Positions 2,035 through 9,947 of a DNA stretch of 25,754 nt are shown piece after piece. Source of the stretch: a virus (taxonomy: Duplodnaviria > Heunggongvirae > Uroviricota > Caudoviricetes). Position 1 is the stretch's first letter. Every line of letters begins with the position of its first letter. The stretch is taken from the IMG/VR virus record IMGVR_UViG_2740892213_000014, one strand, 5' to 3'. Both the position numbers and the translations under genes were made by a program. Under the pieces are notes generated by a model that made no database searches, was not told the DNA's origin, and saw only the letters and a list, made by a program, of their open reading frames with translations.

Positions 2035-2457
2035 ATGAAAACAAACACGTCAGATTTCACAATAACTATTTCAAAAAATGACCAAGCATTAATTGATAAC
2101 CTGAAATACCTTGCGGAAAAACATAATAACGGACGAATTGCAATTAATTTACGACACATCACAGGAGTAACAATTGTAACCAGTTACTGGCATCTATATC
2201 TAATCGCTAAATCAGTACTTGAAAACAAAGATTCTGTTGTCAATGGAAGAGATATAGATACTCTTCCTGCACAAATCAAACCGATAGCCTATCAATTGCG
2301 TAATCGTTTTAAAAATGAAGGTGGGATTATATTTGACTTTCCCGCAGCTGTAGCCGTGAGCTTCTCTCGGGAGGATATACTTCACTCATTTCGTTTTGCT
2401 CTATCAGGTGACGAGACATTATGGCAGCTAGAAGATGCCGGGAGCAGCCCGGCATAA
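2035..2457 (+). CDS. Hypothetical protein, 140 aa, AT-rich moron
   Basis: Start moved from track 1792 to ATG 2035 (MKTNTSDF…), just after the stop of the previous gene. Upstream part of the track ORF overlaps the previous gene out of frame. Visibly AT-rich codon usage relative to flanks. Confidence 0.5.
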   Translation: MKTNTSDFTITISKNDQALIDNLKYLAEKHNNGRIAINLRHITGVTIVTSYWHLYLIAKSVLENKDSVVNGRDIDTLPAQIKPIAYQLRNRFKNEGGIIFDFPAAVAVSFSREDILHSFRFALSGDETLWQLEDAGSSPA

Positions 2458-2463
2458 ATCAAA

Positions 2464-2655
2464 TTAAAAATCAACCAGTTGTGTGACAGGTGGGTATTTA
2501 CGCTGAATTTTGTCAGTTACTAACGCCAGTAATATATGAATCTCTGCGTTTAATGCGTCTTTATCACCCGTCGTTTTTACCCTGGGAGGGTTAATGTTAT
2601 CCAGAGCAGCACTAAGTTCACTCAACAAATTAACAACTTTTTTATCTTCTGACAT
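2464..2655 (-). CDS. Hypothetical small protein, 63 aa, convergent with the 140-aa gene
   Basis: ORF track. AAGAGG Shine-Dalgarno on minus strand upstream of ATG 2655. 3' ends of the two genes are 6 nt apart. Confidence 0.45.
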   Translation of the reverse strand: MSEDKKVVNLLSELSAALDNINPPRVKTTGDKDALNAEIHILLALVTDKIQRKYPPVTQLVDF

Positions 2656-2792
2656 GAAAACCTCTTAACAATTTAATTAAACATAAGCCAGGACCTGAAC
2701 CGGCCAGTCCAAGTCCTAGACACACAAAAAAAATACCACAAATCAATACAAGGTGACACGAGTACACCTTACCGAAGGTACAGAGTTTTAAT

Positions 2793-3443: not shown

Positions 3444-3686
3444 ATGGGCAAAGAATATAAAACTCTCATTAATAAAGCACTTGAGCGTTTTTATTTTCGC
3501 TTAAGTGCATCAGGCGCTCATGCTGAACGTGCAGCCCGTGACTCATTGACCAGGGCAATCCGGAGTCTGTATGACGTGGCTTTTTACGCTGATGATCTGG
3601 ATGCACTTAACGAACTTTCCGAGCTGATCTGTGCCGCAGAATGCGGGGAACATATTGAACCGTATAAGCTGGGGAATATTGCATGA
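3444..3686 (+). CDS. Hypothetical early protein, 80 aa
   Basis: Start moved to ATG 3444 (MGKEYKTL…); AAAGGG upstream. Confidence 0.5.
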   Translation: MGKEYKTLINKALERFYFRLSASGAHAERAARDSLTRAIRSLYDVAFYADDLDALNELSELICAAECGEHIEPYKLGNIA

Positions 3687-3796
3687 GTATATTTATCTCA
3701 TGGCTTGTTCTGATTATTTCGGTGGTCTGCGCCATTGGGATTATGCGAATTATTAATTCAGTGAAAAAGATCGAGCGTTTTTTCTCTGATGAATAA
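3683..3796 (+). CDS. Small hydrophobic ORF, 37 aa (MSIFISWLVLIISVVCAIGIMRIINSVKKIERFFSDE), predicted single transmembrane helix
   Basis: Translated by hand; not in ORF track (below its size cutoff). ATG 3683 overlaps TGA of upstream gene (ATGA coupling). Confidence 0.35.
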   Translation: MSIFISWLVLIISVVCAIGIMRIINSVKKIERFFSDE

Positions 3797-3888
3797 CGAT
3801 ACAAATAAAACATCAAATTAAATAAGAAAACGTGAAAACCATCCGTATTAACGGAGGTATTCGCACACGTAAATAATGGAGATATAAA

Positions 3889-4328: not shown

Positions 4329-4532
4329 ATGGCAATTAAGCATTTTCCCGTCGTTCGCTTTACCTCCAGAGGGCGCGAATACGAGGTCGACGAACGCCTG
4401 ATTACCACTATCGACAAACATCGTTCGGAAAAGGATGCACACCACATCTACCTCACTGACGGCACTTACTTCTGCGCCACCAACGTGGCGCGGGTGAATC
4501 TTATCCGACAGGTACAGGAGCCACGCAGATGA
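4329..4532 (+). CDS. Hypothetical early protein, 67 aa
   Basis: ORF track; AAGGGGG RBS upstream of ATG 4329. Confidence 0.5.
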   Translation: MAIKHFPVVRFTSRGREYEVDERLITTIDKHRSEKDAHHIYLTDGTYFCATNVARVNLIRQVQEPRR

Positions 4533-5091: not shown

Positions 5092-5213
5092 GAAACCAGA
5101 GCATGCACACACAAAAAAACCGCTTGCCATGCCGCAATCGGTCAGGTTACATTTCCGCTGCACCTCATAAAACGGGTGCCGGGATTCTCAACCCGATACA
5201 GAGCAAAGCGCAT

Positions 5214-5236
5214 AACCGCGCCAGCGGTTTTTTTGT
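5214..5236 (+). terminator. Candidate intrinsic terminator: stem AACCGC/GCGGTT, loop GCCA, then 7-T run
   Basis: Read directly from sequence at 5214-5234; lies in a ~320-bp non-coding gap inside the early operon. Confidence 0.45.
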
Positions 5237-5413
5237 GCGTACTGTATTGCCACGTCTTTTTCGCGTCAGAATTATGGCGGGGCGTACGGGGCCGACTTCG
5301 GTCGGGCCGGATTCTTTGCTCTCCGGTGTTGAGAACCCTGTACGTCTCGCCACCCCGAGATTCTCAACTCTGGATGGTGAGTTATTTCTATCACCGAGCA
5401 AAGAGGCCACACC

Positions 5414-5644
5414 ATGGCAAACCGCAAACAGCACCGCGCTATCGCGGAGCGTCGTCACATCCAGACTGAAATCAACCGCAGACTTTCCCGCGCATTCCGC
5501 GTCGCTAAAATCATGCACATCAATATGCTGCATGAGCGTAGCTGCGAACTTTCAAACCTCTACTCATCCGCTGTTTTCAGCTATCTGGCGGATGATCTGC
5601 GCGAGCTTCAACAGCTCATCCAGCAGCAAAACAAACTCCATTAA
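5414..5644 (+). CDS. Hypothetical early protein, 76 aa
   Basis: ORF track; AAGAGG RBS at 5401-5406. Confidence 0.55.
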   Translation: MANRKQHRAIAERRHIQTEINRRLSRAFRVAKIMHINMLHERSCELSNLYSSAVFSYLADDLRELQQLIQQQNKLH

Positions 5645-5716
5645 TTCCTGTTCCGGGCCTTTCCTGCACCTTGCGGCGGGAGGCCTTCGCACATCTGTAA
5701 CAAGAGGATTGCCGCA

Positions 5717-6082
5717 ATGATTCTCGCCAACGACTTTCTTGAATACCTGCTCAACACAGAGCGTGATCTTGCCGCTCGCGTACGTGATCGTTATGACATG
5801 TATCTGAAATCCCTGCCTGTGCCGCAGCTCGCTGACGGAAAGATTGTTATTGATGGTCGCTACATGATTGACAGCCACGAGGGAAATTACAGGCTTTACC
5901 GCATTGAAGGTGGCACCCCGTCCGTTATTGGCATTTACCAGCGCCCATCCTCTGCAATCGTCGATGTGATTGCCGACAGCATCCGCATCACACATCGCCA
6001 TGCCGACACAGAAGACACCGTGCTGGAAATTCAGCGGCTGGCTGCCGTCTGCCGCGACACCCTGAATGGCATGACGAAGTAA
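5717..6082 (+). CDS. Hypothetical early protein, 121 aa
   Basis: ORF track; AGAGGA RBS upstream; immediately precedes gene A. Confidence 0.55.
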   Translation: MILANDFLEYLLNTERDLAARVRDRYDMYLKSLPVPQLADGKIVIDGRYMIDSHEGNYRLYRIEGGTPSVIGIYQRPSSAIVDVIADSIRITHRHADTEDTVLEIQRLAAVCRDTLNGMTK

Positions 6083-6088
6083 ATCACT

Positions 6089-8911
6089 ATGACGGCAGAG
6101 TACATCAGGGACTGGCAACAACCGCGCCACGCAGTGGGACGTGAAGGAACGGGGATCCCCGTTCCTGAATCCGCGCTTTCCTCCTGGCTGGATGCCTACC
6201 GGGCAGAGAACGAGCGCCGCCAGGAAATGGCTGATGCGGCGTTCTCCGCCACGCCGCTGGGCAACCTGATTAATAAAAGCCTGGATGCACAGGAAAAACA
6301 GGACAAAACCATCACACTGGCAGGAGACGCCAGAAAACAGGTACGCGGTGCGGTGGATGAAGCCATGGCCTCGCTGCGCCTGCTGCCGTCCTATCTGCGC
6401 GATCCGCTTATTCGCCACCTCTCCTTCCTGCGCAAAAAACAGGAAGCCGATCGCCGGAAAGGCAAAAAGAGCTGGCAGGCTGAACGCTACGCGCGCGGAA
6501 CCCTGCGCAAAATATTCGAACGTCTGGACCGCACCGACCACCGCTGGCTGACACCGGGTTATCGCTCCCTTGCCGGACGCGAACGCCTGGATGATTTGCT
6601 TTACCTGCCGCAGCTCAACAAGCACCAGATACAGACGCTGGCCACCATGACGGCGGCGATGTTCAGCAGCACCTTCGAAAAACTCTGCGATGGCTTTGGC
6701 GCGACTGATGGCGAGCTGACCATGGATGTAACGCTGAAGGCGTATCAGATGCTGGCCCGCATGGCGTTACACCTGCACGCCATGCCTCCGCATTATGACG
6801 CACTGACAACAGACAAAGACCGGAGGAACGAACCGGACACGGAGCTGCTGCCGGGCGCAATCCTTCGCCTGACCTGTGCGGAATGGTGGAAACGCAAACT
6901 GTGGCTGTTACGTTGCGAGTGGCGGGAAGAACAACTCCGCGCCGCCTGTCTGGTTTCCAGAAAAACATCGCCCTATCTGAGCCAGGACGCGTTAAGCGAG
7001 TTTCGCGCACAGCGCGAGAAAACACGCGATTTCCTGAAAAGTTTCATGCTGGAAAACGAAGACGGGTTCACGATTGATCTCGAGACGGTGTATTACGCGG
7101 GAGTAAGTAACCCGGTTCACCGTAAGGCAGAAATGATGGCCACCATGAAGGGGCTGGAACTTCTGGCCGAAGCCCGTGGCGACAAAGCGGTGTTTCTGAC
7201 TGTCACCTGCCCGTCAAAATACCACGCCACAACAGAGAACGGTCATCCGAATCCCAAATGGAACGGGGCCACCATGCGCGACTCCAGCGATTACCTGGTT
7301 AACACGTTTTTTGCGGCGGTCCGCAAGAAACTGAACCGCGACGGCCTGCGCTGGTATGGCATCCGCACGGTGGAGCCTCACCATGACGGCACCGTGCACT
7401 GGCATATGATGGTCTTTGCTCATCCGGAAGAAATCGACACCATTGTGTCCCACACCCGCGATATTGCCATTCAGGAAGATCGTCACGAGCTGGGTGATGA
7501 TATTACCCCACGCTTTAAGGCGGAGTACGTCGACGGCTCAAAAGGCACACCGACCAGCTACATCGCCACCTACATCGGGAAAAACCTGGACAGCCGTGCC
7601 GTGGATGGCATCGACCCGAAAACGGGCAAGCCACGCGTTGACCACGAAACCGGAAAATCAATGGCCGAGAGCGTGGAACGCGCCATCGGCTGGGCGCGCC
7701 TTCACCGGGTCCGCCAGTTCCAGTTCTTTGGTATCCCCTCCCGTCAGGTGTGGCGTGAACTGCGCCGCCTTGCCAGCCAGATGGCTCGCAACCCGGAAGG
7801 ACCGCAACGGCTGAAGGATGACGCAATGGACGCGGTTCTTGCTGCCGCTGATGCCGGATGTTTTGCCACCTACATAGAGAAACAGGGCGGCGTACTTGTT
7901 CCACGCAAGGACTACCTGATTCGCACCGCCTACGACCTCGCCGATGAGCTGAACGATTACGGTGAACAGAGCGTACAGATTTACGGGATCTGGTCACCGC
8001 TCATCGGGGAGTCTTCCCGCGTATGCACGCATCCGGACAACTGGAAGCTGGTAAGACGCAAACCGGAAGCGGAAGACAGCGCCCGCGAAAATGGTTTTGA
8101 CCTTCAGGGCGGCCCTGCCGCACCTTGGACTCGTGGCAATAACTGTCCCCGTGTACAGGAAACGGACAACAACGGGACAGAACAGCCGGAAGAACGGCCA
8201 GCACCGTGGCCGCAGCTTCCTGACGGCGTTGACGTGAACGAATGGATGCGCTCACTGAAACGGCACGAACGCCGGGCGCTGATGCGTTCGCTGCGTGACA
8301 AACAGGCAAAAAACAGCAGTGATGAAATGCAGAGCTGGACACAGAGCCGCAAACAGCAGCGGCCTTTGCCTGATAACCACGAATTACTCGCTAAAGAATG
8401 GCGGGAATCTGCCGAATCTCTCGGCCTGCATATCGGTGAACAGCAGATGCAGCACCTGTTACGGGGCGGCAGCCTGTACGTTGACGGCAGCATCATTGCA
8501 CCGCAGGGATTTGAAATTGTACGCAAACCGGATACCCGCCCGGACAGCCGAATCACGCAGCTCTGGCAGCGCCTGAGCCGTAATCACGGCGTAAGCAGCA
8601 CGGAGATCCGCCATAACCCGGTCGCCAGCTATCTGGAACAGCTGGGGGCATCAGACCCCGAAGCCGCCGCACGTCTGGCATCCACACTTCAGCAGGACCA
8701 GAACACCATGAACCCCCCCGTTACCGTGCTTTCTGACATGCTGCGCGCCATCCGCGACGCAGAGCACGCACAGAGAATCAGTGAAACCACTGAACGTGCC
8801 CGCCGCAAAGCAGACCTGCTGCGGGGTGGCCTGACCAGTGGAAACAAAAAACAGACAGAAACGGGATTCACAAATCCCGTAAATGAGCAAAAAACGCGCC
8901 GCGATATATGA
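6089..8911 (+). CDS. A: Rolling-circle replication initiator / replication endonuclease, P2 gpA family, 940 aa
   Basis: HUH-type motif VHWHMMVF and paired catalytic tyrosines in SYIATYIGKN (Y-x3-Y) are typical of gpA/phiX174-A-type initiators. Position between early genes and portal matches P2 synteny. Protein is longer than I recall for P2 A, with a C-terminal extension. Confidence 0.88.
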   Translation: MTAEYIRDWQQPRHAVGREGTGIPVPESALSSWLDAYRAENERRQEMADAAFSATPLGNLINKSLDAQEKQDKTITLAGDARKQVRGAVDEAMASLRLLPSYLRDPLIRHLSFLRKKQEADRRKGKKSWQAERYARGTLRKIFERLDRTDHRWLTPGYRSLAGRERLDDLLYLPQLNKHQIQTLATMTAAMFSSTFEKLCDGFGATDGELTMDVTLKAYQMLARMALHLHAMPPHYDALTTDKDRRNEPDTELLPGAILRLTCAEWWKRKLWLLRCEWREEQLRAACLVSRKTSPYLSQDALSEFRAQREKTRDFLKSFMLENEDGFTIDLETVYYAGVSNPVHRKAEMMATMKGLELLAEARGDKAVFLTVTCPSKYHATTENGHPNPKWNGATMRDSSDYLVNTFFAAVRKKLNRDGLRWYGIRTVEPHHDGTVHWHMMVFAHPEEIDTIVSHTRDIAIQEDRHELGDDITPRFKAEYVDGSKGTPTSYIATYIGKNLDSRAVDGIDPKTGKPRVDHETGKSMAESVERAIGWARLHRVRQFQFFGIPSRQVWRELRRLASQMARNPEGPQRLKDDAMDAVLAAADAGCFATYIEKQGGVLVPRKDYLIRTAYDLADELNDYGEQSVQIYGIWSPLIGESSRVCTHPDNWKLVRRKPEAEDSARENGFDLQGGPAAPWTRGNNCPRVQETDNNGTEQPEERPAPWPQLPDGVDVNEWMRSLKRHERRALMRSLRDKQAKNSSDEMQSWTQSRKQQRPLPDNHELLAKEWRESAESLGLHIGEQQMQHLLRGGSLYVDGSIIAPQGFEIVRKPDTRPDSRITQLWQRLSRNHGVSSTEIRHNPVASYLEQLGASDPEAAARLASTLQQDQNTMNPPVTVLSDMLRAIRDAEHAQRISETTERARRKADLLRGGLTSGNKKQTETGFTNPVNEQKTRRDI

Positions 8912-8987: not shown

Positions 8988-9947
8988 ATGAAAATTTGTA
9001 TCGACGACGGCTCCACCAACATCAAGCTGGCATGGACTGAGAATGGCGAACGCCGCAACGCCATCAGCCCGAACAGCTTCAAGTCGGAATGGTCTGCGCC
9101 GTTCGGTGGCATGCAGCCCGCGAACTACATGCTTGATGGCGTGCGCTATGGTTTTGATCCGGTCAGCGATCGCTTTGTCCAGACGACCGACACGCAATAC
9201 CAGTACAGCGATGTGAATGTAATCGCCATTCATCACGCGCTGGTCAAATCAGGCATCACGCCACAGGAGGTGGATGTGGTTGTCACCCTGCCACTGAGCG
9301 AGTATTTCGACACAAACGCACAGCCGGACATGGCCAACATCAACCGCAAAAAAGCGAACGTTATGCGCCCGGTGGAGTACCAGAACGGCGAAGCATTCAC
9401 TATCCGTAACGTGCGGGTTATGCCTGAATCCATTCCGGCTGGCTTTAAAGCACTGGCTGACATGAGTCCGTTTGAATCCCTGCTGATTGTGGATTTAGGC
9501 GGAACCACGCTGGATGTGGCAAAGGTTCAGGGGCAACTGGCAGGTATCAGCCAGGTGTTTTGCGATCCACACGTAGGCGTCTCCCTGATGGCCGGTGCCG
9601 TGCTGTCGGTGATGGCCGCTAACGGTATGCGTACCAGTCACCACATCGCCAATACCATTATCGAACATCGCCATGATGAAGCCTGGTTGCGCCAACACAT
9701 CCACAATGACGCGCATTACGCCAGCCTGATGGCGGTTATTCGTGAAAAGGAAGAAACACTGAAACAACGCGTGATCCGCGCGCTGGCGGGTTTTTCGGGT
9801 TACGGGCGGGTGATGGTTGTCGGTGGCGGGGCGGAGATTGTGGCACCCGCTATCCGCGAAGCCTGCGGAGTTAATGCGACTTTCATCGCGGACGGGGTGC
9901 CACAGTTTGCTCTGGTTAATGGGCTGTACGCAATGGACAAGGAGTAA
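8988..9947 (+). CDS. parM: Actin-like segregation ATPase, ParM/StbA family, 319 aa
   Basis: Long-range similarity to plasmid R1 ParM as I recall it (N-terminal IDDGSTNIKL, YSDVNV…HHAL, VMPESIPAG, DLGGTTLD, VGGGAE). AAGGAA RBS upstream. Confidence 0.8.
   Translation: MKICIDDGSTNIKLAWTENGERRNAISPNSFKSEWSAPFGGMQPANYMLDGVRYGFDPVSDRFVQTTDTQYQYSDVNVIAIHHALVKSGITPQEVDVVVTLPLSEYFDTNAQPDMANINRKKANVMRPVEYQNGEAFTIRNVRVMPESIPAGFKALADMSPFESLLIVDLGGTTLDVAKVQGQLAGISQVFCDPHVGVSLMAGAVLSVMAANGMRTSHHIANTIIEHRHDEAWLRQHIHNDAHYASLMAVIREKEETLKQRVIRALAGFSGYGRVMVVGGGAEIVAPAIREACGVNATFIADGVPQFALVNGLYAMDKE

Follow-up and report, generated by a model that had tools for sequence, protein, structure and literature searches.

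The 37-codon open reading frame (ORF) that follows the DUF4754 gene in the window, the 25,754-nucleotide stretch of viral DNA analysed here, is, judged from its sequence conservation, a genuine conserved coding gene under purifying selection. The best-supported reading is that it encodes an inner-membrane microprotein, predicted to lie N-out/C-in and to be co-translated with DUF4754 (Table 1). As a kind of feature it is an ordinary one, a phage single-pass microprotein of a known class. Small phage membrane proteins form a recognised, poorly charted class, and this peptide is both well supported and very common. Defining it would annotate thousands of genes now called "hypothetical", and could shed light on early manipulation of the host envelope by P2-family phages.

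Table 1. Positions in the window of the small ORF, its neighbouring elements and other features discussed in the text.
Feature	Position	Strand	Basis or remark
140-aa ORF within the cox–DUF4761 insert	2035..2457	+	side observation
63-aa ORF within the cox–DUF4761 insert	2464..2655	-	side observation
14-bp inverted repeat near the cox–DUF4761 insert	2688..2719		
DUF4754 gene, 80 aa, acidic, small helical protein	3444..3686	+	Pfam PF15946, E=2.8e-54
Purine-rich SD-like motif, GCUGGGGA, in the last DUF4754 codons	3668..3675	+	anti-SD duplex
37-aa microprotein CDS (P88 gp07 family), stop included	3683..3796	+	ORF reading, conservation; ATG at 3683, TAA ends at 3796; product MSIFISWLVLIISVVCAIGIMRIINSVKKIERFFSDE
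ATGA start/stop overlap with the DUF4754 gene	3683..3686	+	predicted termination-reinitiation junction
Transmembrane (TM) segment codons, residues 3-21 (IFISWLVLIISVVCAIGIM)	3689..3745	+	hydrophobicity, AF2 helix
Juxtamembrane/amphipathic tail codons, residues 22-37 (RIINSVKKIERFFSDE)	3746..3793	+	predicted cytoplasmic
A5 run, frameshift site	3764..3768	+	alleles with the tail replaced from about residue 29
T6 run, frameshift site	3778..3783	+	45-aa alleles, tail ...IERFSLVNNDTNKTSN
Conserved hairpin in the spacer after the cassette	3832..3864	+	core stem 3842-3846 / 3851-3855
IsrK Hfq-binding RNA	5160..5234	+	Rfam, 62.8 bits
Terminator-like hairpin and T-run	5214..5229	+	inside ORF 5103..5720
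C4 antisense RNA	5270..5357	+	Rfam, 78.5 bits

The window is recognisable as a P88-like prophage (Xuanwuvirus, Peduoviridae, P2 family). When the 1.4 kb around the small ORF was searched against phage and genome records, it matched 14 phage records, P88 among them, and 1399 E. coli genome records at ≥80% identity. An integrase and a repressor gene lie on the minus strand, followed by cox, DUF4761, a gene for 92 aa, DUF4754 and the small ORF; beyond it come several small genes and then replication endonuclease A. This int / C repressor / cox ... A order is syntenic with P2 and 186 and agrees with a preliminary description of the window, which had placed the ORF behind an early gene. From the synteny we infer that the small ORF sits in the early lytic operon. 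Around it we found no plus-strand terminator and no promoter above the chance level (6 promoter-like sites, compared to 6.5 expected from shuffled sequences), and it would be transcribed from the early (Pe-type) promoter together with cox...A.

Direct reading of the letters bore out the extent of the ORF, 3683..3796, and its overlap with the upstream stop, both of which had been claimed beforehand. The TGA of DUF4754 occupies 3684-3686, giving a 4-nt overlap (gcATGAgt) that was kept in every lineage despite differing flanking codons. The SD-like motif just upstream is predicted to form an anti-SD duplex of -5.5 kcal/mol at the small ORF, compared to a background mean of -2.3. It recurred in 10/10 lineages (-5.5 to -8.3 kcal/mol, 9-13 nt upstream of the start), and the DUF4754 codons that bear it encode different amino acids across these lineages. 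Experiments in E. coli show that 4-nt overlaps generally give termination-reinitiation coupling, mostly with the help of an intragenic SD (PMC6728339). Here both the overlapping stop and start and the intragenic SD are present and conserved, and the layout described earlier as translationally coupled therefore stands as a prediction. Ribosomes finishing DUF4754 would translate the peptide by SD-assisted termination-reinitiation. Coupling of the ATGA type is by itself ordinary in an operon that has several such junctions (the others are at 4529, 4792 and 5717).

As a 37-codon open frame alone is not beyond chance, we tested its conservation. In relatives that share the flanking genes, which the preliminary description had singled out for this check, the ORF was kept throughout: it was intact, with its ATGA junction, in 101/101 usable loci. 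The encoded length was 37 aa in 79 loci and 41 aa in 15, and the remaining 7 carried a 45-aa frameshift allele. Eighty IMG/VR loci encode a DUF4754 identical to that of the window, and five other loci bring this close set to 85. The ORF was intact with ATGA in all 85, which together held 29 peptide variants with conservative substitutions (V/I/A, L/F, R/K/Q). The pN/pS ratio was 0.21 in the frame of the ORF and about 1-1.5 in the other frames, bar the antisense frame that shares third positions. Nucleotide diversity over codons 1-33 was 0.028/0.021/0.078 at the first, second and third codon positions; the adjacent downstream spacer had a diversity of 0.19 and no periodicity. Across lineages, dN/dS was 0.19-0.34 where dS was unsaturated.

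The same arrangement was found at greater depth, in a distant set made up of the genomic contexts of a 41-aa subfamily (see below) and twelve more divergent IMG/VR loci. At every one of these loci the peptide came directly after DUF4754, and the two genes overlapped by ATGA. Between distant lineages DUF4754 was 31-40% identical to that of the window, and the peptide 49-76%. Phage 503458 (NC_049341.1; a match at 51% identity) was left out as a low-quality record. Several frameshifts disrupt its DUF4754 and peptide genes as well as its replication gene (split into several CDS), which suggests sequence-quality problems.

These data bear on two readings in which the peptide itself would be beside the point. 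The first holds that translation matters and not its product, or that the ORF arose by chance. Ribosomes would be carried past the DUF4754 stop, and this would, for instance, avert Rho-dependent polarity or make the mRNA more stable as far as the hairpin downstream. By chance alone an open frame of this length would not be rare, the operon has several ATGA junctions, and frameshifts are tolerated in the tail and the last four codons (see below), all of which such a reading would accommodate. It does not, however, account for the low dN/dS, for TM and tail residues that are invariant where synonymous sites are saturated, for the conservative substitutions, for a length held at 37-41 codons in 94/101 loci or for the conserved SD-like motif, and we regard it as highly improbable. 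The second attributes the conserved signal to an antisense ORF or to a structured or regulatory RNA or DNA element, and we find it hardly credible. A 69-codon antisense ORF (3607..3816, minus strand) is indeed open in the window, the in-register antisense frame has a pN/pS of 0.25, and there is a promoter-like match on the minus strand (3767..3740). But an in-frame stop interrupts the antisense ORF in the majority of the listed close relatives, its low pN/pS is to be expected as the echo of a frame that shares third positions, and opposite the NTN-rich TM codons such a frame is open by default. The frequency of sites like the minus-strand promoter match was no higher than in shuffles, and Rfam gave no match at the small-ORF locus.

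The preliminary description had called the ORF unannotated. This proved wrong, as it is already carried by the P88, vB_EcoM-569R5 and PGAP records. P88 gp07 (YP_009113050.1, "membrane protein") is the same gene, 89% identical and in the same position after DUF4754 with the same 4-nt overlap. In vB_EcoM-569R5 the ORF is annotated as a "putative membrane protein", and PGAP lists it as a "hypothetical protein" (WP_000021666.1 and relatives) in 24 of 25 E. coli genomes chosen to cover the range of identities. Two phage RefSeq records, NC_049344.1 (520873) and NC_049341.1 (503458), omit it. The further claim that such peptides are routinely missed by size cutoffs did not hold for this gene in RefSeq/GenBank, where it is annotated. 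In 12 of the 14 phage records that matched, the member of the P88 gp07 family was 84-92% identical to the window's peptide; the frameshifted 503458 accounts for the remaining two. The window's peptide shows both full-length identity to this family and the ATGA position after DUF4754. The small ORF is thus already annotated, yet without a curated family: it is an uncharacterised member of the uncurated P88 gp07 family.

The peptide is widespread within a narrow host range. The exact peptide of the window was found on at least 1000 contigs in public collections, and clusters with UniRef A0A4T9T1D6, a "Prophage membrane protein". DNA of the small ORF was found in 1387 of 5426 complete E. coli genomes, up to three times per genome. 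The family is limited to Escherichia-type hosts, apart from occasional Shigella, Salmonella and Citrobacter-phage records. When 1.84 billion representative proteins were searched exhaustively with an HMM, only 17 matched, all from one narrow family (E down to 7.6e-21), and the divergent 41-aa subfamily came to light. Searches of the peptide against Pfam, PHROGs, NCBIfam, PADLOC and PDB sequences gave sub-threshold hydrophobic noise only. The sole Pfam match, DUF2975, was rejected as a generic hydrophobic match (13.2 bits, E=0.084, compared to a gathering threshold of 27 bits). The PADLOC defence models matched neither the peptide nor DUF4754, DUF4761 or their neighbours. A literature search found no mention of DUF4754, of the peptide sequence or of the accessions, and the small gene is not discussed in the P88 paper.

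A scan of genome contigs yielded two loci only, one of them on a contig labelled Vagococcus. This contig (NZ_JBQPOM010000071.1, Vagococcus sp. WN89Y, 226 kb), attributed to a Gram-positive genus, carries an E. coli-type P88-like early region, in which DUF4754 shows 98% identity and the peptide corresponds to a common E. coli allele. The locus is probably the result of assembly contamination or mislabelling.

What kind of protein does the ORF encode? The hydrophobic segment is 19 residues long (-3.35 kcal/mol on the additive Hessa scale, mean Kyte-Doolittle value 2.81), and AlphaFold2 (AF2) modelled residues 2-35 as a single continuous helix (pLDDT 88). The single transmembrane helix suggested beforehand is therefore upheld by both predictions: the model has one bilayer-spanning hydrophobic helix, as expected for a single-pass inner-membrane microprotein. 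Only two residues precede the TM segment, leaving essentially no extracytoplasmic part. The tail has a hydrophobic moment of 0.81, compared to 0.38 in shuffles (p=0.017). It had been described as basic, which is right for the residues near the membrane (R22, K28, K29 and R32) but overstated for the tail as a whole, which is weakly basic (4 K/R and 3 D/E, net charge about +1; the pI of the peptide is 8.0). Members of the 41-aa subfamily have an additional basic C-terminal end (RRK, RHK or HHK). Because basic residues adjoin the membrane after the TM segment, the positive-inside rule predicts an N-out/C-in orientation. Insertion would be post-translational, since the C-terminal tail of a 37-residue protein is so short that the ribosome would already have released it.

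Conservation along the peptide was uneven. Over 40 unique peptides M1, S6, W7, L10, G19, I23 and I24 were invariant, and I11, A17, K28, I30 and E31 nearly so; I23 and I24 were invariant, and K28, I30 and E31 nearly invariant, in the 41-aa subfamily too. As both the TM segment and the tail contain such residues, the sequence itself is constrained, beyond hydrophobicity. The small residues S2, S6, S13 and A17 suggest a stripe along one side of the TM helix, but with G19 counted in the pattern was not significant (p=0.085), and we rejected it. In the tail, the motif K-x-I-E-x-[FL]-F was conserved across subfamilies, and the last four residues of the peptide were variable. Frameshift alleles arise at two homopolymer runs. 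Those at the A5 run comprise variants P0013-P0015 and P0020, and the 45-aa alleles at the T6 run, found in 7/101 loci, comprise clusters P0001-P0012. Such tail-replacing frameshifts, in about 7% of loci, mean either that the extreme tail is dispensable or that these prophage copies are decaying.

The peptide lay directly 3' of DUF4754 in 101/101 loci, and was never seen apart from it. The 92-aa gene upstream of DUF4754 may be present or absent, and the genes downstream vary. This comparison shows DUF4754 and the peptide as a two-gene cassette, inherited as one inseparable unit while both of its flanks are exchanged. The DUF4754 protein (pI 5.3) was modelled by AF2 with a pLDDT of 88.8 and helices at residues 4-48 and 52-66. 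A Foldseek search of the PDB with this fold gave E>1 for every match, and the matched structures were designed proteins or helical bundles of a generic kind. We also considered DUF4754-peptide fusions, but the DUF4754 entries of 103-128 aa, mostly from raw-read assemblies, proved to be frameshift read-throughs into wrong frames, and no genuine fusion protein was found among the long database entries.

Because strict co-occurrence persists down to 31-40% DUF4754 identity, we propose, tentatively, as the likeliest of the readings considered but somewhat short of an even chance, that the peptide serves DUF4754 as its partner in the membrane. The conserved tail motif implies a sequence-specific cytoplasmic contact. 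The TM helix would anchor the peptide in the inner membrane, where its conserved cytoplasmic tail would dock the small, acidic, helical DUF4754 protein. The outcome would be a membrane-tethered accessory early module that, in the course of lytic development, acts on some membrane-associated process of the phage or its host. Enterobacterial microproteins are often predicted to bind the products of neighbouring genes (PMC11188072). Several points count against such a partnership: the long database entries include no genuine fusion, strict linkage could stem from the absence of intergenic DNA for recombination, the tail is replaced by frameshift in about 7% of loci, the modelled fold of DUF4754 gives no functional clue, and the stripe of small residues on the TM helix was not significant.

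KdpF, CydX, AcrZ and MgtS are small inner-membrane regulators of E. coli that bind to larger proteins, in many cases the products of adjacent genes. The peptide is like them in size (about 30-50 aa), in its single TM helix and in its short cytoplasmic tail. It is also like them in that it would be expected to act via protein-protein contact, with the product of the neighbouring gene as the likely partner. It differs in that its neighbour, DUF4754, is soluble and not a membrane complex, and in that its gene belongs to phages and occurs only in P88-like prophages of the Escherichia type.

An alternative, along the lines of the preliminary description, is that the peptide is a stand-alone host-directed membrane effector, which acts on an inner-membrane target or on the bilayer. 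It might block division, transport, proteolysis or the entry of superinfecting DNA, or depolarise the membrane, and its coupling to DUF4754 would only set its expression level. The TM invariants S6, W7, L10 and G19 are as expected of a specific helix-helix contact, and at depth the peptide is better conserved than DUF4754, which is consistent with a conserved host target. Nevertheless, we consider this alternative somewhat unlikely, as the peptide is not similar to any known toxin, division inhibitor or defence protein, and as it never occurs without DUF4754.

Effectors of other phages speak partly for this alternative and partly against it. At an analogous early-operon position, phage 186 has fil and dhr, which according to the record annotation block cell division and inhibit host replication, respectively. 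Like the small ORF, these are small early-operon genes of a P2-family phage; they are non-essential and overlap each other. However, Fil (75 aa) and Dhr (66 aa) have no TM segment, nor does P2 Orf78, and fil and dhr are sited after cII and not in the DUF4761/DUF4754 module. On the plus strand of the P2 and 186 early regions we found no TM-type small ORF as a positional analogue. A likeness to the C-terminus of Fil (IIRIVHFVIK versus IMRIIHSVKK) was rejected: the best local alignment covers 10 residues and was not significant against shuffles (p=0.03-0.05 for the consensus, 0.21-0.29 for the window allele).

Small membrane proteins that inhibit division are known in bacteria, as the SidA-type proteins show. 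They also exist in phages as single-TM proteins, for example gp56 of the Bacillus phage SP01 (bioRxiv 10.1101/2020.02.06.938217). This small single-pass protein contacts host membrane proteins, and to that extent offers a parallel. But gp56 has 79 aa, is predicted to be N-in/C-out and needs its extracellular C-terminal part, whereas our peptide has no periplasmic part and has a conserved, predicted cytoplasmic tail instead; the two show no sequence relationship.

It is distinctly unlikely, in our estimate, that the cassette as a whole is a two-component membrane-tethered module for host takeover (or anti-defence). The peptide would in that case recruit DUF4754 to an essential inner-membrane machine, inhibiting or re-programming it early; candidate targets are the divisome, FtsH/HflKC and the insertion/secretion apparatus. 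If true, the cassette would be among the commonest uncharacterised phage effectors in E. coli, and would offer a handle on a new membrane target.

Two further identities were considered and rejected. Type I toxins (Hok, Ldr, TisB, Ibs, ShoB) are likewise small and hydrophobic, have a single TM helix and carry charged residues behind it. However, the peptide gene is part of an operon, its ATG overlaps the stop of the gene before it, promoter-like sites are no commoner than chance predicts, Rfam gave no antisense RNA at the locus, the antisense ORF is not conserved and there is no sequence similarity. A holin was rejected on position, the small ORF lying between cox and replication gene A, about 13 kb from the late region.

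Downstream of the cassette, the spacer contains a conserved hairpin with an MFE of -15.8 kcal/mol (z=-2.67). In the alignment 97% of cells pair, and one pair covaries from C-G to U-A. The hairpin lies within a conserved block of about 45 nt that is kept even in divergent lineages. It has no U-tract on the plus strand (a weak one on the minus strand was flagged as terminator-like), and its right arm contains GGAGG. The mosaic junction with the variable downstream genes falls just after it, near 3870. Possibly, the hairpin is a 3' boundary element of the cassette.

Some further features of the window and of related operons stood out. In P88, cox and DUF4761 adjoin directly; the window carries an insert between them, with two ORFs (140 and 63 aa) for which Pfam and PADLOC searches gave no match. 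Just 3' of replication gene A, at 8988..9947 on the plus strand, is a gene for a ParM/StbA actin-like plasmid-segregation protein (Pfam StbA_N 2.7e-82, ParM_N 1.6e-67), which is unusual cargo in an integrating P2-family prophage. Some P88-like early operons have, further downstream, a second membrane-associated gene pair, in which the gene for a small membrane protein precedes that for a protein of the Band_7/SPFH family, and here too start and stop overlap (7135..7965 in locus L090 and 3884..4914 in L001, which is P88). P88 annotates its Band_7/SPFH-family protein as "lipoprotein / serine protease", and the window does not have this pair. Finally, ORF 5103..5720 is an "ash family protein" in RefSeq, with a sub-threshold match to Pfam Phage_ASH (18.7 compared to 26 bits). 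Given the IsrK and C4 RNAs detected there, the 5' part of this "ash" CDS may in fact consist of genes for non-coding RNAs from an immunity module of the P1/P7/P4 type.
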